DNA of 8,594 bases from IMG/VR virus record IMGVR_UViG_2740892431_000003, one strand, 5' to 3'. Made by a program: the position numbers and the translations under genes. The notes under the pieces are model-generated. The model made no database searches. It was not told where the DNA came from and saw nothing but the letters and a program-made list of their open reading frames with translations. Origin of the DNA: a virus (Duplodnaviria; Heunggongvirae; Uroviricota; Caudoviricetes). Within the stretch, counting starts at the first letter, position 1. Every line of letters starts with the position of its first letter. This document shows positions 1-6,997 of this stretch, one piece after another.

Positions 1-344
1 AAGGGCGCGTGCGCTATCCACTTTTTTGCCCGTCCATATTCAACGGCTTCTTTGAGGAGTTCATTTTCCATCGTTTTCTTGCCGAGCAGGCGCTGGAGTT
101 CTTTAATCTGCTTCATGGCGGCAGCAAGTTCAGAGGCAGGAACAACCTGTTCTCCGGCGGCGACAGCAGTAAGACTTCCTTCCTGGTATTGCTTACGCCA
201 GAGAAATAACTGGCTGGCTGCTACACCATGTTGCCGGGCAACGAGGGAGACCGTCATCCCCGGTTCAAAGCTCTGCTGAACAATTGCGATCTTTTCCTGT
301 GTGGTACGCCGTCTGCGTTTCTCCGGTCCTAAGACATCAATCAT
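1..344 (-). CDS. insC: IS2 transposase OrfA (InsC), first ~114 codons; 3' end lies off-window
   Basis: Minus-strand translation from ATG at 344-342 gives [114 protein letters not shown], which matches IS2 InsC from memory. The ORF track missed it because it runs off the window edge. Confidence 0.85.
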
Positions 345-435
345 CTGCTCTCCAATGACTAGTCTAAAAACTAGTATTAAGACTATCACTTAAATAAGTG
401 ATACTGGTTGTCTGGAGATTCAGGGGGCCAGTCTA
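1..435 (-). mobile_element. IS2 (IS3 family) insertion sequence, partial: terminal inverted repeat plus 5' part of orfA; element continues beyond window start
   Basis: Reverse complement of 395-435 reads TAGACTGGCCCCCTGAATCTCCAGACAACC, matching the IS2 terminus as I recall it; orfA (InsC) starts 90 bp inside. The element boundary at 435/436 coincides with the abrupt start of integrase-like coding sequence. Confidence 0.85.
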
Positions 436-747
436 CAAATCGACAGAACGGTGAAAATAATAAATGAAGATGGTGAGCATATTCAGGGCTTCACCGTACA
501 CGATATGCGCCGTACAGCCAGTACGTTGTTGCATGAGGCTGGTTATCCTTCAGACTGGATTGAAAAGGCTCTGGCACATGAGCAGAAAGGTGTGCGCGCC
601 GTATATAACAAAGCGGAATACGCCAGACAGCGCGCCTACATGTTGCAGCAGTGGGCCGATATGATTGATTCATGGATTGACGGGGAGCATACGGATCTGA
701 TTCCGTTCTCCCCGTCGAAGTTTGAGAAGTGGATGGCGGGGGAATAA
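436..747 (+). pseudogene. int: 3' fragment (C-terminal ~103 aa) of a P4-family tyrosine integrase, truncated by the IS2 insertion
   Basis: In-frame translation from 436 gives QIDRTVKIINEDGEHIQGFTVHDMRRTASTLLHEAGYPSDWIEKALAHEQKGVRAVYNKAEYARQRAYMLQQWADMIDSWIDGEH... This carries the HxxR box and the C-terminal catalytic Tyr region (VRAVYNKAEY) typical of P4/CP4-57-type integrases. The frame is open right up to the IS2 end and has no ATG start (only an internal GTG at 451); ~300 N-terminal codons are missing. Confidence 0.75.
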
Positions 748-750
748 CGT

Positions 751-945
751 TTAATAGTTCTGCTGATTTTCTTCCATCTCTGCTTCTGCTGCCAGTGATT
801 CAATTTTGTTTTCGAATATTGCTGACAGTGTTGCAAATTCAGCATCAGTGACAGCGGGAATTGGAACAAACCTGATCCCGCTGTGTGCAAGCATGTTTGC
901 AGTTTCAAGGCATTTTCTTAAATCTGCTGGTGATGCCCTGTTCAT
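751..945 (-). CDS. hypothetical small protein (64 aa), last gene of the leftward operon
   Basis: ATG at 945-943 overlaps the methyltransferase stop codon (ATGA arrangement), implying translational coupling. Translation MNRASPADLRKCLETANMLAHSGIRFVPIPAVTDAEFATLSAIFENKIESLAAEAEMEENQQNY. Stop at 751-753 is 3 nt from the convergent integrase stop. No recognisable family. Confidence 0.4.
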   Translation of the reverse strand: MNRASPADLRKCLETANMLAHSGIRFVPIPAVTDAEFATLSAIFENKIESLAAEAEMEENQQNY

Positions 946-1592
946 GCAGCACGCTCCCGCCCCTGGATGTCTGTTGGTGACAGCGGAGCATTGCTGAATG
1001 CATTTGTTAATCCGCCAATATCCAACGCGTATCCAGGGTGTAGTTGCACTGCCGGGTCTTCGCACTGATTACCCCAAACATCAAAGCCATGAGACGTCTG
1101 GCGGGCGAACAGTTCAATGCGAGAAACATCGCCTAATAATTGCACAAGTTTTTCACGAACGATATCTGGCTTTCTTGAATGCTCAAGCCGCGGTGCGGTA
1201 AATGACTGAACGATCCCTGCATTAATGCGCGTAGGTAGTTTTCCCTTTACCGCAAACAGGCAATCTTCACTATTGGCGCGAGTCATGTGTCCCATACCCA
1301 TAACCAGTTTATCTGGTTGTCGACTACCACATTTTATCCACGTGAAGCCCTTCATCGTCATCAGACGGAATCCCCAGGCTTCAACAACTTTTAGTGCTTC
1401 GAGTGGTTGTGTTGGCACCCACCACATGGCCAACAGACAGTTTTCATCGGCCAAATCCCACACAGGAAGGCGGCAGATATCCAGCACACTCATAACCGGA
1501 TATTTAAAACCGGCACCGCGATTACCATCTGCGGCTTTGTCCCGGTATACCCAGGGTGGATCTGCATAGATTAGTGTGTATTTCTTAGTCAT
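942..1592 (-). CDS. MT-A70 family DNA N6-adenine methyltransferase (phage orphan methylase)
   Basis: N-terminus MTKKYTLIYADPPWVYRDK...KYPVMSVLDICRLPVWDLADENCLLAMWW has the DPPW catalytic motif and the layout of phage MT-A70/Dam-like methylases. The start could be the ATG at 1592 or the GTG at 1604; the 1592 ATG overlaps the upstream ORF's stop (ATGACTAA). Confidence 0.8.
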   Translation of the reverse strand: MTKKYTLIYADPPWVYRDKAADGNRGAGFKYPVMSVLDICRLPVWDLADENCLLAMWWVPTQPLEALKVVEAWGFRLMTMKGFTWIKCGSRQPDKLVMGMGHMTRANSEDCLFAVKGKLPTRINAGIVQSFTAPRLEHSRKPDIVREKLVQLLGDVSRIELFARQTSHGFDVWGNQCEDPAVQLHPGYALDIGGLTNAFSNAPLSPTDIQGRERAA

Positions 1593-1884
1593 AAACCACC
1601 CCACAACATCCTATGCCGCTATAGTCGCCACGGCGAAGGCCGTTACCTTTTGTGATACATTGGTCCCTGCGAACCGCGATCCTTGCACGTTCAACATCAC
1701 CAGAAGCAACATCCATACACTGAAGCCAAAGGTGAGCGGCAATGCGGAATTGCCCTTTTTTCTCTCTTTCAATCGCGCGTTTTTCGATCTCTATCGCCGC
1801 AGGAGTAACGGCGACAATCTTTGACGGACTGCGCATTGAAACCTTATTCATGTGATATTTTTCAAGTCGGCTTAACTTTCTCAC
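1585..1884 (-). CDS. hypothetical protein (~99 aa; start uncertain, GTG at 1884 or internal ATGs)
   Basis: Minus-strand ORF co-directional with the operon; its stop overlaps the methyltransferase start. The sequence looks protein-like (…KIVAVTPAAIEIEKRAIEREKKGQFRIAAHLWLQ…) but I do not recognise a family. Confidence 0.4.
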   Translation of the reverse strand: MRKLSRLEKYHMNKVSMRSPSKIVAVTPAAIEIEKRAIEREKKGQFRIAAHLWLQCMDVASGDVERARIAVRRDQCITKGNGLRRGDYSGIGCCGVVYD

Positions 1885-1993
1885 TTAATCCAACCCTCTC
1901 TGAAAATTAATGCCAGCAGATAAAGCCATGCTGAAACAGAGGCCAGGAATAAGTACCATCCTGACCATTTGCTCCAGTGCCTTAGCAGCGCAC

Positions 1994-2242
1994 TCATGCA
2001 GCGTTGCTCACGGGACGATATACACGTTGCTGAACAGGAGGCTTTTTACCCTGGAACTCTGCCGGGCTTGCTGCCTGACGTTCATCAAGCCAACGCTCAA
2101 CTTCATCACGGTTCCATGCGCAGCGTTTATCGGTGATATACCAGCGTTTAGGAAATTCCCCTGCGCGCTCCATACGGTCGATAGTGCTCCATGACAGTGG
2201 CACCACCGCCAGGAGTTCTTTCTTACCTAATGCACCTTTCAT
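1994..2242 (-). CDS. AlpA/excisionase-like HTH DNA-binding protein (Phage_AlpA family-like)
   Basis: MKGALGKKELLAVVPLSWSTIDRMERAGEFPKRWYITDKRCAWNRDEVERWLDER fits the AlpA/Xis pattern (L..V..S.STI.R....G.FP......W...EVE.WL). RBS AGAGAGG sits 6 nt upstream of the ATG. Confidence 0.6.
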   Translation of the reverse strand: MKGALGKKELLAVVPLSWSTIDRMERAGEFPKRWYITDKRCAWNRDEVERWLDERQAASPAEFQGKKPPVQQRVYRPVSNAA

Positions 2243-2264
2243 GAATACCTCTCTTGGTTGCAGT

Positions 2265-2283
2265 GCGGCGCACGTGGCGCCGC
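2265..2283 (-). other. GC-rich perfect hairpin (GCGGCGC-acgtg-GCGCCGC) with no U-tract, in the recT-alpA intercistronic space
   Basis: 7-bp all-GC inverted repeat with a 5-nt loop, seen directly. No T-run on either strand, so it is not a canonical intrinsic terminator. Confidence 0.3.
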
Positions 2284-2291
2284 GGTGGTGG

Positions 2292-3314
2292 TTACTCGAA
2301 TTCTGGACGCATATCGTTAAGCGTCATCATGAATTTTTGGTGATATTCATCACCGAGCTTTTCAGCCATGGTGTTAATTTCATTTTCAGCGCGCTTGAAC
2401 ATCGTTTTTGCATCTTCAGCAGATGGATCCAGGCTATTAAGTATCGCGATGATATATTCTCGAGCTTCTTCTCGTTCTGAATCTGAAATTGGCGACAGGT
2501 GTTGACGCTCATCGTCAACTACGGAATATTCACCAGTGATAACAGCTGCGTTATCTTGGCTAAGTCCAGCTTCAGCGCGCTCATCCATAACAACAGCCTT
2601 CTGCATTTCAATAGAAACAGGAAGATATTTGAACAGTCGGCGAATTACTGTTTTTTTAGCCATCTCATCGAAGTGATCAACCCATGGGCCACTGCTACCG
2701 GCTTTGCTCAGTGCACGAACTTTCTCAACGTCTGCCCGGCTCATAACTTCAAATTGGACTCCGCCATCTTTCAGTCGTGCAACGGCGTAAACGTGCGTTA
2801 ATTCTCCGCGGTCACCTGTTTCGCAAGGTAAATGCTCGAGCGTTTCTTCCAGGCCGTATGAGTAGCTGAATTTGTCGTTTGTATGTACGGTACGAGCCGA
2901 GATACTCAGGATCTGCCCAGAGCGGCGGGCAAGGTCAATCATTCCGCGATAGCCGATAATCAGCTGTGCTTCTGTAGATACGGTTTCCCATCTTCCATTT
3001 ACTTTCTGGCGTTTGTCGAACGGTATCAGGTAAGCGTGTCCAAGAGCTCCGCCTGGTTCAAGACCCAATTGGGCACATTGCATAATTGCCCCCAGGAAGC
3101 TGGCTTGGTCGCATGATGCAAGTTTTGGAACCTTTCTGATCTCTGTGGTTGCTATGCGCGCCAGACGGTCTGCTGTCATGTGCTTTGGAAGTGCCAAAGC
3201 CATCTGAGCTTTAATTTTTGGGTCTGCCAGAAGTCCGGCCAGAGTTGTTGGTTTCTCATTATGATGTGCAACTTGGTTACCGGTAGCCGCTGCCTTAAGT
3301 GCATTGATAGACAT
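2292..3314 (-). CDS. recT: RecT-family single-strand annealing protein
   Basis: Strong resemblance to Rac RecT: ...MTADRLARIATTEIRKVPKLASCD...AQLGLEPGGALGHAYLIPF...LIIGYRGMIDLARRSGQI...THVYAVARLKDGGVQFEVMSR...GPWVDHFDEMAKKTVIRRLFKYLPVSIEMQKAV. RBS AGGAGA precedes the ATG. Confidence 0.9.
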   Translation of the reverse strand: MSINALKAAATGNQVAHHNEKPTTLAGLLADPKIKAQMALALPKHMTADRLARIATTEIRKVPKLASCDQASFLGAIMQCAQLGLEPGGALGHAYLIPFDKRQKVNGRWETVSTEAQLIIGYRGMIDLARRSGQILSISARTVHTNDKFSYSYGLEETLEHLPCETGDRGELTHVYAVARLKDGGVQFEVMSRADVEKVRALSKAGSSGPWVDHFDEMAKKTVIRRLFKYLPVSIEMQKAVVMDERAEAGLSQDNAAVITGEYSVVDDERQHLSPISDSEREEAREYIIAILNSLDPSAEDAKTMFKRAENEINTMAEKLGDEYHQKFMMTLNDMRPEFE

Positions 3315-3323
3315 TTTTTCTCC

Positions 3324-4223
3324 TTACTTCATTCTGAAGACGCGTTGTGTCGTTGTTGTTTTGAATTTTTCGAATAACTCAGGGTGTACTGACTGGAATA
3401 GCTTCTGGTCGAATCTGTTGCTGATCTGAGATTTCCATGTGCAGAGCGGCTTTCCGTCCAGGGTCAGGACTGAGTGCTCTTGCATGTACATCTTCAGCTT
3501 CTCTTCTGATATAGCTATTTCTTCTTCCAGTGATTTTCTGCGTGATTTCATGTCTCGTAGATCGTTGAATAGTGCGAGTGCCTTTCCGTCAGCCTCGATA
3601 CTTGTCCCGGCATCTTTCTCAAACATCAGCGATACATCGCTTACGCTGGTAGCTTCCGGCGGGTTAAGATTTTTCACTCGGTCCCAGAAAGCGATTTCTT
3701 TTTCTAAGATCGCCTGGATAGTTTCTTCATCACGCTCAACCCGATAGATTCGGAAGTCGTCGCCACCGATAAGCACACCGAAAACGCATACCTGTTTGTT
3801 TGTAACCATCAACCCGTGCATGGCCTGGGCCGTGTAATGCACAGGAATTGCATCTGTCTGGATTTCTCCCCATTCTTTGGCTTTGAACGGACTAACTGTT
3901 TTGATCTCAATGTTCTCGCCTGACGCTGCTTCTGCATCGATCTCAGCTGCAATAAAATCGTAATCACGGTGGATATAGCGGTTTCCGCGATGAACGATTT
4001 CCATCCCTGTTTCCTCAGAAAGCAGGTCTATTACGTATGGCTCCATACGCTGGCCACGCGTGAAAACTTTCTGCTTGCTTGGGTCTACTGGTTTGACACG
4101 TGGCTGGACCTTATCCAGATAAACCTCAAGCGGGGTGCGCCATGGGCTAATTCCAAGAATCCCTGCAACATCGCTTCCTCCGATGTATTTTGTTCTATCC
4201 ATGATTCCAGCGTTCCGCATCAT
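3324..4223 (-). CDS. YqaJ-like (lambda Exo-like) 5'-3' exonuclease, recombination partner of RecT
   Basis: Sits immediately upstream of recT in the same operon. The N-terminal region (…YIGGSDVAGILGISPWRTPLEVY…, later …YYTAQAMHGLMVTNK…) fits the YqaJ viral recombinase fold. ATGA overlap with the upstream gene's stop; an internal ATG 21 nt downstream is an alternative start. Confidence 0.8.
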   Translation of the reverse strand: MMRNAGIMDRTKYIGGSDVAGILGISPWRTPLEVYLDKVQPRVKPVDPSKQKVFTRGQRMEPYVIDLLSEETGMEIVHRGNRYIHRDYDFIAAEIDAEAASGENIEIKTVSPFKAKEWGEIQTDAIPVHYTAQAMHGLMVTNKQVCVFGVLIGGDDFRIYRVERDEETIQAILEKEIAFWDRVKNLNPPEATSVSDVSLMFEKDAGTSIEADGKALALFNDLRDMKSRRKSLEEEIAISEEKLKMYMQEHSVLTLDGKPLCTWKSQISNRFDQKLFQSVHPELFEKFKTTTTQRVFRMK

Positions 4224-4519
4224 GCCGCGTCCCTCTGCCCATCAAGCTGATCCGCCAGATCCCAGCGCGCTATAATTGCCATTGCCTCGCGCCGGTAGGC
4301 ATCCATCAGTTCTTCGAACTCAGGGCTGTCTTTAGCAGCCTCCAGCACTTCCTGACGAACGCCTTTGCCTGTTACAACGTCGAAAGTTGAGGACAGTTGA
4401 TGAAGTCGGATGCTCTCAATCAGTTCAACTTGTCGGTCATATAGCTGTTCTGACAGGCGGTAGTCCTTGTCGAATGCCAGCATGATTTTTTGAAGATTTT
4501 TCTGCTGATTAACGTTCAT
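4220..4519 (-). CDS. hypothetical protein (100 aa), second gene of the leftward operon
   Basis: Strong RBS GGGAGGG 6 nt upstream of ATG 4519; its stop overlaps the exonuclease start. Translation MNVNQQKNLQKIMLAFDKDYRLSEQLYDRQVELIESIRLHQLSSTFDVVTGKGVRQEVLEAAKDSPEFEELMDAYRREAMAIIARWDLADQLDGQRDAA. No family recognised. Confidence 0.5.
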   Translation of the reverse strand: MNVNQQKNLQKIMLAFDKDYRLSEQLYDRQVELIESIRLHQLSSTFDVVTGKGVRQEVLEAAKDSPEFEELMDAYRREAMAIIARWDLADQLDGQRDAA

Positions 4520-4521
4520 TA

Positions 4522-4674
4522 TCAGCCCTCCCATATCTCGTTATCGTTGGCTACATCGCGAGCTTCTTTGCTGACGAAAGCCCACTTAATGCCTTCCTGT
4601 AAGGTGCGGAACTTCCAGCTCATGAATCCGCATGCAGTAACGCAGTACCAACCGTTGATGATTTTCCACTGCAT
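4522..4674 (-). CDS. small Trp/Cys-rich protein (50 aa), promoter-proximal gene of the leftward operon; absent from the ORF track (below length cutoff)
   Basis: Hand translation: MQWKIINGWYCVTACGFMSWKFRTLQEGIKWAFVSKEARDVANDNEIWEG. RBS GAGGT lies 9 nt upstream of the ATG, and the stop TGA sits 2 nt before the next gene's ATG. It occupies the position of lambda N/cIII/kil-type small early genes. Confidence 0.4.
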   Translation of the reverse strand: MQWKIINGWYCVTACGFMSWKFRTLQEGIKWAFVSKEARDVANDNEIWEG

Positions 4675-4692: not shown

Positions 4693-4771
4693 GTTACCGT
4701 TGAGGTAATAATTATGCGTATTTGGTTTGATGTCAATAGATATGAGTTAAAAAAATTACCCATTAGGTAAT
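4693..4771 (-). promoter_or_regulatory. Leftward early promoter (pL-like) with two flanking 17-bp palindromic operators (OL)
   Basis: Operators GTTACCgttgaGGTAAT (4693-4709) and ATTACCcattaGGTAAT (4755-4771). On the minus strand a -35 TTGACA (complement of 4731-4736) is followed ~17 bp later by an AT-rich -10 (AATTAT) that overlaps the 4693-4709 operator. Confidence 0.5.
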
Positions 4772-4780
4772 AGTATAGGC

Positions 4781-4805
4781 AATAAAAAAGCCGCCAGAAG
4801 GCGGC
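4781..4805 (-). terminator. Rho-independent terminator downstream of the repressor gene
   Basis: Minus-strand RNA would form GCCGCC-UUCU-GGCGGC followed by UUUUUUAUU (plus strand 4781-4805 reads aataaaaaaGCCGCCagaaGGCGGC). Confidence 0.7.
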
Positions 4806-4827
4806 TTACTTACTGAAAAGTATGATT

Positions 4828-5412
4828 TTATTGTTTGTTTTTTTCGTTCTGGTTGATGACAAATTCAATGTAACTTTCGATCTTTGCTTTCTCGGTTTCG
4901 GGTAACAATGCGTAGCGCGAGCGGTCATAGTTGATGGTCGCAGGGTCGTGCGGGTGAATCAGTAATTCATAGCCGTGACGCCCGAATGCGGATGCAACAT
5001 TCTCCAGGGTGGAAATGGAAACGCTGACCTCATTGTTTAACAGGCGACTGATTGTCACCTGGGCGACGCCGGATGCGCGGTGAAGTTTTCCCTGCGTTGA
5101 AAGGTCGCGGCTTTCGCTCATCCAGCGTTCCAGGTTGTGAGCCGCCAGCTGACCAATGTCGCTTGGGCCGACAGGCTGAAAACCTTCCTGAGAAAGCGAG
5201 CGATCGATATCAAGCCAGTTACGGGGTTTATTGGCGGCAGCTTCAATTTTTCGTGCAACCTGGTCGCCGATAACCTTCTTGCCAAGAGCCCAGCGGTTTA
5301 CCAGATTTGCCTGAGTTCCAAGTTTTTCTGCCATCCGCGTCTGAACACCATTGAATTCACGGTCGATCAAGTCGTTGAGATTTTGCCTGCGGACGTCCTG
5401 GATACTTTTCAT
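4828..5412 (-). CDS. Prophage repressor (CI-like role) with two tandem XRE-type HTH domains and no S24 peptidase domain
   Basis: First HTH roughly …VQTRMAEKLGTQANLVNRWALGKKVIGDQVARKIEAAANKPRNWLD; second roughly …LHRASGVAQVTISRLLNNEVSVSISTLENVASAFG. Placed between the divergent operator-bearing promoters, followed by its own terminator. The C-terminus has no Ser/Lys peptidase motifs. Confidence 0.7.
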   Translation of the reverse strand: MKSIQDVRRQNLNDLIDREFNGVQTRMAEKLGTQANLVNRWALGKKVIGDQVARKIEAAANKPRNWLDIDRSLSQEGFQPVGPSDIGQLAAHNLERWMSESRDLSTQGKLHRASGVAQVTISRLLNNEVSVSISTLENVASAFGRHGYELLIHPHDPATINYDRSRYALLPETEKAKIESYIEFVINQNEKNKQ

Positions 5413-6163: not shown

Positions 6164-6997
6164 ATGAGCAGACATGCAACAGATTGGGCCTGGGAGACAG
6201 ATCCAGGTAGCTCATCATTAAAGCTCATACTGCTCTCGATGGCTGACAGAGCCGATGAATATAACCTCTGCTACCCCAGCATAGAACGCCTCGTTAAAGA
6301 CACTTGCCTGAATAAAAAAACCGTGCAGGCCGGGCTTATATCGCTCATGAAAATGGGGCTTATTTCAGATACCGGAGAGAGAAAGGGAGCGACAAAAAGA
6401 GTGCGGGTTTTCTCTCTTAATATAACCAAAAACGGGAACATTAAAGGCAACCGGGAGGGGGGCAATGAACCCGAAAACGGTAATGTTACCGAAAACGGGA
6501 ATATACCCAAAAACGGGATGTTGAATGATCCCAAAAACGGGATGTTGAATGATCCCAAAAACGGGATCCAGAACCAGTCATATAACCAGTCATTTAACCA
6601 AGAGAGGGAGAGCAGGACAAAAACCGGGGATTCTGTTCCTCATGACCCCGGCGCAAACAACGCCGTGATGAATAACTTTGTTCCTCCTGGTGGGCCAGGG
6701 CAATTAGGTAAATTTGTCATGCATGAACAATGGCAGCCATCAGATGACTTTCTTCGGAAAAGCTCATTGCAGGGAATCTACCTGGACAGTCTGCCAACGG
6801 CACAGGAACTTGCAGAGTTCAGAATTTACTGGATGGCTGAGGGTAAGGCATACCATCAGGCACAGTGGGAGCAGAAGCTGGCAAGGCGCATCCAGTTCTG
6901 TAGACAGAAATCAGGTGAAGTCAGAAAGAGCCTTGACTGGCATAACACTGACTGGATAGATGAGGTGTGGGATGAAATCAACTCCAGAACTTCTTAA
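6164..6997 (+). CDS. Replication initiation protein (lambda O-like; N-terminal winged-helix DNA-binding domain, low-complexity iteron-encoded linker)
   Basis: N-terminus MSRHATDWAWETDPGSSSLKLILLSMADRADEYNLCYPSIERLVKDTCLNKKTVQAGLISLMKMGLISD is typical of phage replication-initiator HTH domains. It sits directly upstream of, and overlaps, the P-like gene and contains the iteron array. RBS GGAG precedes the ATG. Confidence 0.7.
   Translation: MSRHATDWAWETDPGSSSLKLILLSMADRADEYNLCYPSIERLVKDTCLNKKTVQAGLISLMKMGLISDTGERKGATKRVRVFSLNITKNGNIKGNREGGNEPENGNVTENGNIPKNGMLNDPKNGMLNDPKNGIQNQSYNQSFNQERESRTKTGDSVPHDPGANNAVMNNFVPPGGPGQLGKFVMHEQWQPSDDFLRKSSLQGIYLDSLPTAQELAEFRIYWMAEGKAYHQAQWEQKLARRIQFCRQKSGEVRKSLDWHNTDWIDEVWDEINSRTS
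6425..6571. repeat. Iteron array (putative phage origin of replication) embedded in the O-like gene
   Basis: At least six direct repeats with core (A)CC(C)(A/G)AAAACGG(G/T)A starting near 6426, 6470, 6488, 6506, 6530 and 6554, at 18-24 bp spacing. This includes a perfect 24-bp tandem duplication (6506-6529 and 6530-6553). A second short direct repeat AACCAGTCAT(A/T)T follows at 6572-6600. Confidence 0.6.

Follow-up and report, generated by a model that had tools for sequence, protein, structure and literature searches.

We analysed a window of 8,594 nucleotides from the tailed-phage record IMGVR_UViG_2740892431_000003 (IMG/VR), in which the minus strand carries, in order of transcription, genes for an AlpA-type excisionase, a 38-aa membrane peptide, a 99-aa PerC-family protein, a 216-aa MT-A70 methylase and a 64-aa homologue of lambda Orf63 (Table 1). 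These are five genuine genes, placed head-to-tail with successive overlaps of 4-8 nt, and together they close the early operon of an E. coli prophage of the common phiV10/epsilon15-like kind; the cluster is ordinary and already annotated. The window DNA is 98.2% identical to phiV10 (NC_007804) and 100% identical to one E. coli chromosome, and both keep its gene order; intact prophage copies adjoin guaA, and roughly one complete E. coli genome in ten has the module (561 of 5426). A search with the whole window, insertion-sequence segment included, matched 7420 E. coli records, plasmids among them. As in the window, phiV10 p32-p36 comprise AlpA, the membrane peptide, a PerC-type activator, an adenine methylase and DUF1382, with a convergent P4-type integrase. 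Epsilon15 shares this backbone (gp29-gp33 being the equivalents, with alpA annotated here as in phiV10), but there a 35-aa ORF separates PerC from the methylase, and DUF1382 is replaced by another small gene. The ORFs, coordinates and start/stop overlaps of a preliminary description of this DNA agree with the junctions that we read directly from the sequence. Its ‘unrecognised’ ORFs, by contrast, belong to known families (PerC for the 99-aa ORF, lambda Orf63/DUF1382 for the 64-aa ORF), and all are annotated in phiV10.

Table 1. Genes and sites of the 8,594-nt window, with their positions, strand and the evidence for each.
Feature	Position	Strand	Evidence
IS3-family insertion sequence end (orfA 3-344), interrupts integrase gene	1..438	-	Pfam HTH_Tnp_1 1.4e-19
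P4-type integrase C-terminal remnant, 98 aa, convergent with operon	451..747	+	Pfam Phage_integrase 5e-06
DUF1382 protein, lambda Orf63 homologue, 64 aa	751..945	-	Pfam PF07131, PDB 8DSB
Methylase C-terminal tail, about aa 188-216, lineage-specific, predicted disordered	942..1028	-	Alignment end, pLDDT
MT-A70 family N6-adenine methyltransferase, orphan, 216 aa	942..1592	-	Pfam, phrog, PADLOC, structure match
Catalytic motif IV DPPW, methylase residues 11-14	1551..1562	-	Read as GAT CCA CCC TGG
PerC-family protein, 99 aa, GTG start	1585..1884	-	Pfam PerC, phrog_868
Single-pass membrane peptide, 38 aa (phiV10 gp35 / epsilon15 gp32)	1881..1997	-	phrog_17484, coding-frame test
27-aa ORF of the preliminary description; alternative frame of the 38-aa gene, no gene	1885..1968	-	Coding-frame test
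AlpA-family excisionase/regulator, 82 aa, upstream of cluster	1994..2242	-	Pfam Phage_AlpA 3.1e-05; phrog_66 2e-16
RecT, same leftward operon	2292-3314	-	Pfam RecT 4.4e-57
YqaJ exonuclease, same leftward operon	3324-4223	-	Pfam YqaJ 2.7e-23
104-aa ORF, same leftward operon	4220-4534	-	
50-aa ORF, same leftward operon	4522-4674	-	
Promoter-like site TTGACA-17-AATTAT, candidate driver of leftward operon	4708..4736	-	Consensus match only

Positions 751-2242 would constitute the promoter-distal end of an early leftward operon of recombination and excision genes in a prophage of the Uetakevirus type. The upstream genes of this operon (2292..4674) are tightly packed, a scan between 751 and 4700 gave no terminator-like site on the minus strand, and a consensus scan gave no separate promoter-like site upstream of the methylase. 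The candidate promoter lies just downstream of a terminator-like hairpin (4788-4807), which follows the repressor gene (4828-5412), and these consensus scans for promoters and terminators are our one guide to when the operon would be expressed. An Rfam search of the window returned no RNA family. At the other end, the integrase gene is 1251 nt long in the intact relatives L001 and L002, whereas in the window, unlike phiV10, it has been broken by an insertion sequence, and homology to intact prophages starts at position 439. The InsC-like sequence at 1-438 is presumably IS2. The 3-nt gap between the stop of the 64-aa gene and the convergent integrase stop (745-747), taken earlier as a sign that the former is genuine, is present as described, but it abuts a 98-aa C-terminal stub only.

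The methylase reads from an ATG at 1592-1590 to a TGA at 944-942 and matches Pfam PF05063 over the entire profile (positions 1-172 of 172; 80 bits against a cut-off of 23.9), phrog_359 (3e-120) and PADLOC MTase_II (2.7e-77), the last being the sole PADLOC match in the window. The phrog_359 profile has 329 positions and the match begins at 118; we treated the N-terminal extension as reflecting a mixture that includes longer relatives. Among sequences in the PDB it matches Tetrahymena MTA1 (4e-13) and METTL3, and its AlphaFold 2 model aligns with METTL3 (5il1_A) at a Foldseek E-value of 1.7e-13 and a TM-score of 0.62. The position of DPPW near the N-terminus corresponds to the beta-class order of motifs, (D/N)PP(W/Y/F), and in an alignment of 30 sequences P12 and W14 are invariant, while conservation is at least 90% at D11 and P13. 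K141-P142, E160 and F162 are likewise invariant there, with L161 and N175 again at 90% or more; these residues line up with the SQKPE and LEIFAR segments of MTA1 from Tetrahymena and are, we take it from METTL3 structures, contacts for AdoMet. The AdoMet pocket, whose loss the preliminary description had named as a possible mark of inactivity, thus appears to be kept on alignment, and the enzyme is catalytically intact as judged by its sequence, with DPPW, the full-length Pfam match and the METTL3-like fold all in place. Residues 194-216 have a pLDDT below 50. The methylase is also an orphan: a domain search of its neighbours (PerC, DUF1382 and integrase) identified no adjoining nuclease-domain ORF and PADLOC no nuclease partner. 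As a cognate endonuclease gene is absent beside it, it does not belong to a type II restriction-modification system. M.EcoGIX, a plasmid-borne single-strand-specific methylase considered as a relative, was set aside as unrelated to this context.

Upstream, the 99-aa gene runs from a GTG at 1884-1882 to a TAA at 1587-1585 and, as had been described, its stop overlaps the start of the methylase, by 8 nt. Its product matches phrog_868 ‘transcriptional activator’ along its length (5.7e-62, positions 1-99 of 99) and Pfam PerC (PF06069) over profile positions 5-50 of 90 only (6e-07; 30.1 bits, cut-off 22.6), while its score against the NCBIfam profile ANR (AraC negative regulator, NF033650) was 23.6 bits, below the cut-off of 32. 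The annotation of phiV10 starts this gene at a later ATG, giving 88 aa. The alignment instead supports the GTG start and the length of 99 aa: relatives have an ATG at the exact position of the GTG, the later Met codons chosen by public annotations are not conserved in relatives, and epsilon15 gp31 is annotated at 99 aa. PerC/Pch proteins activate transcription of LEE1/ler in EPEC and EHEC, and no link to LEE is known for the protein in the window. The two share the core motif A..LE.KG.WRRAA..WL...D......R..I..RR..C, but the window protein differs from these activators by an additional N-terminal helix, itself conserved, and by a C-terminal tail, YSGI..GVVYD, that is invariant. In its AlphaFold 2 model, the N-terminal helix is followed by a three-helix bundle and the conserved disordered tail; neither Pfam nor the model revealed a recognisable DNA- or RNA-binding domain. 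Foldseek matches of the core were weak, MIT/TPR-like and not significant (E at least 0.3), and the predicted bundle suggests a shape suited to binding protein rather than DNA.

The 64-aa gene starts at an ATG (945-943) that overlaps the methylase TGA as ATGA, ends at a TAA (753-751) and is, as claimed, genuine: its product matches Pfam PF07131 over the full profile (1-60 of 60; 105 bits, 1.8e-30) and, over residues 2-62, PDB 8DSB (8.5e-13), and is 51% identical to gp4 of phage PA8. It was correctly said to be missing from the ORF list, which instead shows a 104-aa ORF beginning at an upstream GTG at 1065. The 8DSB structure is that of lambda Orf63 (PMC10869804), a small dimeric, non-essential protein of the exo-xis region that promotes lytic development. 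Like lambda Orf63, the 64-aa gene lies between recombination genes and int in an early leftward operon; in contrast to the window, lambda has no methylase beside it. DUF1382 is not a consistent neighbour of such enzymes, being present in only 6 of 87 MT-A70 loci. A mosaic junction at methylase residue 187, together with the helix-binding cleft of Orf63, led us to consider whether the methylase tail and DUF1382 interact and are inherited together. This was ruled out, since the Tyrion, Salmonella and Enterobacter enzymes share the tail of the window methylase but are followed by genes other than DUF1382, DUF1382 lies upstream of the methylase in locus L103, and few loci carry it at all.

Between alpA and PerC, the preliminary description had placed a possible 27-aa hydrophobic peptide. 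Such an ORF exists, and its TAA abuts the GTG of PerC, but it is a wrong-frame artefact. When single-nucleotide codon differences among 9 distinct relatives were classed as synonymous or non-synonymous, the 27-aa frame had 55 synonymous to 345 non-synonymous differences, as against 242 to 120 in the frame of the 38-aa gene. Stops break the 27-aa frame in some relatives, and searches of Pfam, NCBIfam and phrog profiles found no family match for it. The 38-aa peptide covers all of phrog_17484 (1-38 of 38; 2.6e-27) and has one hydrophobic segment, WSGWYLFLASVSAWLYLLALIF; its gene is coupled at both ends, overlapping the stop of alpA as ATGA and the start of PerC as GTGA, and is annotated in phiV10, epsilon15 and Tyrion. 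We give almost no credence to the idea that the small ORFs arose by chance and that the methylase is the sole gene here. The ORFs are short, and the 38-aa one is left out by RefSeq/PGAP, but against this stand the profile matches of the 64-aa (1.8e-30), 99-aa (5.7e-62) and 38-aa (2.6e-27) proteins, the solved structure of a homologue of the 64-aa ORF, the conservation of these proteins across phages of Escherichia, Salmonella, Enterobacter and Klebsiella, and a leaning of substitutions towards synonymous change. The idea is already refuted for the 38-, 64- and 99-aa ORFs and holds for the 27-aa ORF only. The small ORFs on either side of the methylase are therefore genuine, conserved and tightly coupled genes.

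Coupling of this kind says little about function. Of 71 species-representative MT-A70 loci, 41 have a preceding gene that runs 1-12 nt into the start of the methylase, and in 36 of those 41 this gene is not PerC. Since the overlap is generic, it is no evidence of partnership with the methylase; it reflects how compact and translationally coupled such phage operons are in general, and is not the sign of a dedicated methylase complex. The overlap lends no support to the earlier suggestion of a coupled methylase partner, and in sister prophages the same PerC adjoins Dam-type or C5+Dam enzymes. The slot between PerC and int is filled, in every relative examined, by a DNA methyltransferase, the family of which varies: an MT-A70 enzyme, either alone or accompanied by DUF1317, a wHTH protein, SPC32H (annotated as DNA-sulfur modification) or an ASCH-like protein; a Dam-type methylase (PF05869); or a 637-664-aa fusion of a C5-methylase and Dam. 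Because methylase families interchange in this slot, the window enzyme reads as replaceable DNA-modification cargo without a nuclease partner, most likely serving anti-restriction, and because every relative examined has a DNA methyltransferase there, we infer that the enzyme would methylate adenines in phage DNA. In lacking a cognate nuclease and lying in an early operon, it resembles the orphan phage adenine methylases T4 Dam, P1 Dmt and phage Dam PF05869, but it belongs to another family (MT-A70, beta class, very short).

The closest studied counterpart points elsewhere. Gong, Chakraborty and Koudelka described the M.EcoPA8orf6770P-PNB-2 holoenzyme of the Stx2a prophage PA8 (PMC10810198), the methylase of which shares DPPW and a core 83% identical to that of the window enzyme over aa 1-187, where the similarity ends: the last 29 residues are unrelated, and the C-terminal 27-aa tail of the STEC type is absent from the window methylase, whose own tail recurs in the Tyrion, Salmonella and Enterobacter homologues. 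The setting is similar too, with an overlapping upstream gene, a DUF1382 gene directly downstream and int nearby, although PA8 belongs to the Sepvirinae, while the window is Uetakevirus-like. On DNA in vitro the PA8 enzyme had activity near background, and once complexed with PNB-2, which its upstream gene encodes, it favoured 16S rRNA/30S subunits; it affected prophage induction and not restriction, the holoenzyme raising spontaneous induction (PMC10810198). Conversely, overproduced M.EcoGV, which is closely related to the Stx-phage enzyme, was reported to methylate GATC in vivo (PMC10810198), and by analogy the target of the window methylase is probably GATC-like. The PNB-2 gene has no match in the ORF set of the window; in its place is PerC, which has no detectable similarity to PNB-2. 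We considered PerC as a distant PNB-2 homologue and rejected this: BLASTP found nothing, and an hhalign match (E 0.082) was confined to a wHTH segment that the window protein lacks.

One could thus suppose that the window methylase acts chiefly on ribosomal or other RNA and tunes spontaneous prophage induction, with no part in DNA anti-restriction. The nearly shared catalytic core and the presence of the RNA methylase METTL3 among the nearest structural relatives favour this, yet we consider it quite improbable, since the rRNA preference came from PNB-2, which is absent here, the tail suggested to contact PNB-2 (PMC10810198) has been swapped for an unrelated one, sister prophages fill the same slot with bona fide DNA methylase families, and the rRNA site of the PA8 enzyme was never mapped in that work. 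Less remote, though still unlikely, is the possibility that the PerC protein serves the MT-A70 enzyme as a dedicated partner or specificity subunit, a counterpart of PNB-2 in a two-subunit methyltransferase. The PNB-2 gene occupies the same slot, where it overlaps its methylase gene by 4 nt, and the two products co-purify 1:1; the PerC model, for its part, has a protein-binding shape and a conserved disordered tail. Of 87 loci, 27 have a PerC-like ORF no more than 1.6 kb upstream of MT-A70, and such ORFs abut or overlap it even where the methylases are only 41-70% identical to that of the window; 20 of 23 of the upstream PerC-like proteins match Pfam PerC. In another operon type, unrelated to the first (cro-CII-replication-[wHTH-PerC]-MT-A70-LexA-like-RusA), a two-domain wHTH-PerC protein directly precedes MT-A70 in 12 of the 13 places examined. 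As PerC-like genes recur beside MT-A70 in this second setting, a partner role is possible, if unproven. In-frame PerC-methylase fusions in public assemblies (P0003, P0001) would also fit, but may be homopolymer sequencing errors, and a profile search from the PerC alignment recovered mostly a 164-aa Enterobacter family and no fusions.

Against such a partnership, the PerC gene is missing from most MT-A70 loci, one or two genes often intervene between PerC and MT-A70 in the operon type of the window, and PerC homologues of about 67% identity, with the invariant C-terminal tail kept, adjoin unrelated Dam or C5+Dam methylases. Nor do PerC and PNB-2 resemble each other in sequence or profile, and the Foldseek matches of PerC are not significant. 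Characterised PerC/Pch proteins act without a methylase, and a literature search for PerC together with methyltransferase found nothing linking the two. A proposed co-variation of the PerC tail with methylase clade was likewise dropped, as the patterns, if suggestive, were inconsistent and the tail is unchanged beside Dam-type enzymes. The co-occurrence of PerC with three methylase families fits a link to methylation generally rather than to one enzyme, and it is in this light that PerC might control the transcription or translation of the methylase, in the manner of a restriction-modification C-protein or of Com for mom of phage Mu. A small protein of a regulatory family directly upstream of a modification gene, with overlapping stop and start, and the wHTH nucleic-acid-binding domain of some PerC relatives would suit this. 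We nonetheless hold such control to be very unlikely, for no DNA- or RNA-binding domain can be recognised in the window protein, no promoter-like site of its own precedes the methylase, and the co-occurrence is equally explained if PerC is a backbone gene beside a cargo slot.

Our favoured account, which we judge a little more probable than even, is that the cluster is the end of the prophage early operon, in which the methylase is anti-restriction cargo and PerC and the Orf63 homologue act independently. Once the operon is switched on, by infection or induction, the methylase would methylate adenines in the phage and probably the host DNA, and this methylation would shield DNA from restriction. 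PerC and the Orf63 homologue most likely function apart from the methylase, PerC as an early regulator that would work by contacting proteins, the Orf63 homologue as a would-be modulator of the lysis-lysogeny decision. The anti-restriction role raised in the preliminary description is thus plausible, being backed by the replacement of methylase families in the slot, but the nearest studied homologue was reported to methylate 16S rRNA together with a partner protein (PMC10810198). By analogy, the PA8 results (near-background activity on DNA, preference for rRNA, need for a partner) would count against our account. So would the largely redundant nature that a GATC-type methylase would have in Dam+ E. 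coli. In addition, the solved MT-A70 relatives are all subunits of hetero-oligomers, and a methylase of 216 aa, in which no target-recognition domain can be recognised, may be unable to act by itself, which also weighs against the account.

The main outcome for this prophage family is a set of corrections to its annotation: RefSeq E. coli records lack the 38-aa membrane gene, PerC ought to be annotated from the GTG with 99 aa, and the 27-aa ORF should be dropped. Beyond this, the same catalytic core with another upstream gene and tail provides a natural comparison for the choice of substrate by bacterial MT-A70 enzymes and for the role of PerC-like proteins. It is a tentative proposal, and one that we regard as doubtful, that PerC-domain proteins upstream of prophage MT-A70 genes are accessory or targeting subunits of minimal methyltransferases, equivalent to PNB-2, with METTL14 and MTA9/p1/p2 of the eukaryotic MT-A70 complexes as loose counterparts. 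Such a reading covers both the bare 99-aa form and the 140-165-aa wHTH-PerC fusions of lambdoid replication operons. If it were true, the PerC family would gain a biochemical role beside, or instead of, the activation of transcription.

We read the minus strand of window positions 1-2400 directly and listed all of its ORFs (see table). This bore out the junctions drawn in the preliminary description around the MT-A70 methylase, including coordinates and overlaps, with one error of frame: a 27-aa ORF had been proposed as a possible peptide gene instead of a 38-aa ORF, which fits the operon better. Coding was assessed across nine distinct sequences (Escherichia, Salmonella, Enterobacter, Klebsiella and other enterobacterial relatives). 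Codons differing by a single nucleotide gave 242 synonymous versus 120 non-synonymous changes in the 38-aa frame and 55 versus 345 in the 27-aa frame, which is also broken by stops in some relatives. This identifies the 38-aa ORF as a real gene, of which the 27-aa ORF is a shadow. This conserved membrane gene is missing from the RefSeq/PGAP record of the identical E. coli locus (L002, 8137-8295).

Features of the window: the methylase cluster, its flanks and the repeat array
Feature	Position	Strand	Length	Remarks
IS3-family element (end)	1-438
orfA of this element	3-344	-		HTH_Tnp_1, 1.4e-19
Integrase	451-747		98 aa	C-terminal stub only; convergent
64-aa ORF (DUF1382)	ATG 945 to 751	-	64 aa	ATG within ATGA overlap with methylase stop; end 3 nt from integrase stop
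MT-A70 methylase	ATG 1592 to TGA 942	-	216 aa	direct reading
99-aa ORF (PerC)	GTG 1884 to TAA 1585	-	99 aa	8-nt overlap with methylase start (ATGACTAA)
38-aa ORF	1881-1997	-	38 aa	ATG overlaps AlpA stop (ATGA); TGA overlaps GTG of 99-aa ORF (GTGA)
27-aa ORF	1885-1968	-	27 aa	stop abuts GTG of 99-aa ORF; different frame from 38-aa ORF
O-like replication gene	6164-6997
Six direct repeats	6418-6570

Profile searches assign every product of the cluster to a known family. The 99-aa protein belongs to the PerC family (30.1 bits against a cut-off of 22.6; phrog_868, 5.7e-62 across all 99 residues), the 38-aa protein to phrog_17484 ('membrane protein', 2.6e-27) and the 64-aa protein to DUF1382 (1.8e-30); the 82-aa protein upstream of the cluster is AlpA-type, and the 27-aa ORF gave zero family matches in these searches. 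The 64-aa protein also aligned at 8.5e-13 with PDB 8DSB, lambda Orf63, a small dimeric, non-essential protein of the exo-xis region that promotes lytic development (PMC10869804, PMC10695390). For the PerC protein, the 99-aa length with a GTG start had been called correctly, since relatives have an ATG exactly at GTG 1884, the N-terminal LxxLEKYH segment is conserved and epsilon15 gp31 is annotated at 99 aa. The Met residues picked in public annotations, Met17 in RefSeq/PGAP (83 aa) and Met12 in phiV10 (88 aa), are not conserved, and the comparative data favour GTG 1884. Conservation, coding bias and family matches thus mark the 38-, 64- and 99-aa ORFs around the methylase as real, coupled genes.

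These genes are not unrecognised, as had been thought: they fall into known families within a known, common prophage, and the gene cluster is already known. The region matches phage phiV10, whose annotation already has all five genes, at 98.2% identity, and an E. coli chromosome in which the prophage adjoins guaA at 100%; it is present in 561 of 5426 complete E. coli genomes. The cluster is preceded on its own strand by RecT, a YqaJ exonuclease and two small ORFs, with a promoter-like site and a repressor gene further upstream, and it therefore forms the distal end of what we infer, as regards the timing of its expression, to be an early leftward operon. Homology to intact prophages begins at window 439, where the end of the IS3-family element interrupts the integrase, a junction absent from the eight best-matching E. 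coli genomes listed; with its integrase interrupted, the prophage may have lost the ability to excise. Separately, the replication gene contains six direct repeats, each about 24 nt long (core CCCAAAAACGGGA, spacing 18-45 nt), that look like origin iterons; two of them also scored as terminator-like hairpins.

The methylase is intact in motif and fold. It covers the whole MT-A70 domain (80 bits against a cut-off of 23.9) and carries DPPW at residues 11-14, and those of its residues that align with the cofactor-pocket segments of Tetrahymena MTA1 vary little or not at all among 30 homologues. Its AF2 model (pTM 0.72; low confidence in two loops, 18-29 and 96-106, and over the final ~28 residues) matched the METTL3 catalytic subunit (Foldseek E 1.7e-13) and Tetrahymena MTA1 (~2e-12). 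Because no nuclease gene adjoins it and PADLOC matches the methylase only, it is an orphan, as had been proposed. In the methylases of L021, L055, L066, L067, L071, L072 and L077 (ORFs near position 3000), mostly of a clade ~41-47% identical to the window enzyme and otherwise intact, DPAW replaces DPPW (catalytic motif IV). Many relatives end in ...AA (ERAA, TEAA, NHAA; window 942-960 is the corresponding stretch), which may be a by-product of the GCA-TGA overlap and of the following gene's GGAG ribosome-binding site, or could act as a protease-recognition tail.

Of the relatives studied experimentally, the nearest is gp5, an MT-A70 enzyme of Stx2a prophage PA8, which is 83% identical to that of the window over residues 1-187, with no similarity beyond. 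Alone it is nearly inactive; with PNB-2 (gp6), encoded by the upstream overlapping gene, it forms a 1:1 complex that prefers 16S rRNA/30S subunits, and its loss lowers spontaneous induction and virulence, while the related M.EcoGV methylated GATC in vivo on overproduction (Gong, Chakraborty and Koudelka, PMC10810198). PA8 gp4, 3' of the methylase, belongs to DUF1382 like the window 64-aa protein, with which it shares 51% identity. PNB-2 showed no similarity to the 99-aa protein by BLASTP or profile comparison. An RNA-directed role like that of the Stx-phage enzyme, drawn by analogy, seems to us unlikely for the window methylase. The abrupt end of Stx-phage similarity at residue 187 (window 942-1031) looks like a mosaic junction within the gene; another relative, P0079, is a chimera whose N-terminal half comes from a distant clade and whose C-terminal half, with the tail, is of the window type.

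We retrieved 80 species-representative loci with relatives of the methylase and classified their neighbours by iterated profiles. Of the 71 loci with a placeable start, 41 have an upstream ORF that runs 1-12 nt past the methylase start, and in 36 of these 41 that ORF is a gene other than PerC (NinB-like, NinG-like, replication protein, ParB-like or C5 methylase). Overlap of this kind is the norm in these operons and says nothing, by itself, about partnership. Half of the preliminary interpretation stands: the genes are real and coupled, around an intact orphan methylase, but their families were already known. A unit of methylase tail and Orf63 homologue was dropped: DUF1382 lies near the methylase in only 6/87 loci, and relatives sharing the tail have different downstream genes.

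A partnership between PerC and methylase would find support in PerC-like ORFs being the commonest upstream neighbour (within 1.6 kb in 27/87 loci; 20/23 Pfam-confirmed), in two unrelated settings: the window's operon (recT-alpA-38 aa-PerC-...-int) and a lambdoid replication operon (cro-CII-replication gene-[wHTH-PerC]-MT-A70-LexA-like-RusA). In the latter, whose methylases share only 41-70% identity with that of the window, 12 of the 13 places examined have a 140-165-aa two-domain wHTH-PerC protein directly 5' of the methylase. These proteins, mostly annotated 'hypothetical', sit between replication gene and MT-A70 with 1-4 nt overlap (L023, L025, L026, L065, L067, L068, L077, L089-L098, L105, L107); we found no paper mentioning the pairing. 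PNB-2 holds the same slot in Stx phages and two other loci. In-frame PerC-methylase fusions occur in public assemblies (P0003, P0001; cf. window 1585-1600); that of P0003 is explained by one T lost from the TTT run of GGTTTATGAC and could be genuine or a sequencing error.

The AF2 model of the PerC-like protein (mean pLDDT 73.5) starts with a short helix, continues as a three-helix bundle (residues 28-80) and ends in a disordered tail (84-99). Its only Foldseek matches were non-significant and MIT/TPR-like (E >= 0.3); as a lead, they hint that the module binds protein and not DNA. Y88, G90, G95, V96 and Y98 of the tail (window 1585-1635) are invariant though predicted disordered, as is typical of a short motif folding on a partner. 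PerC homologues adjoining Dam-type enzymes keep this invariant C-terminal YSGI..GVVYD tail, and its binding target would therefore not be specific to MT-A70. This, together with the variable cargo between PerC and int in the window's own operon type, weakens the partnership, which we regard as unlikely.

That cargo is MT-A70 alone in phiV10; MT-A70 follows a 35-aa ORF in epsilon15, DUF1317 and a wHTH protein in Tyrion, DUF1317 and a protein annotated as DNA-sulfur modification in SPC32H, an ASCH-like protein in L104 and DUF1382 in L103; in other E. coli prophages it is a Dam PF05869 methylase or a 637-664-aa C5-methylase+Dam fusion. Among guaA-type prophages (L099-L102 versus L103, L104, L001, L004, L087 and L088), the slot always contains a DNA methyltransferase, though not always of one family, and the small accessory genes around it differ as well. 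On balance, we lean towards the methylase being replaceable DNA-methylase cargo with independent small neighbours. Constant across the variants is a DNA methyltransferase of some family (MT-A70, Dam PF05869 or C5+Dam fusion), a pattern that fits selection for DNA modification and so supports the anti-restriction reading.
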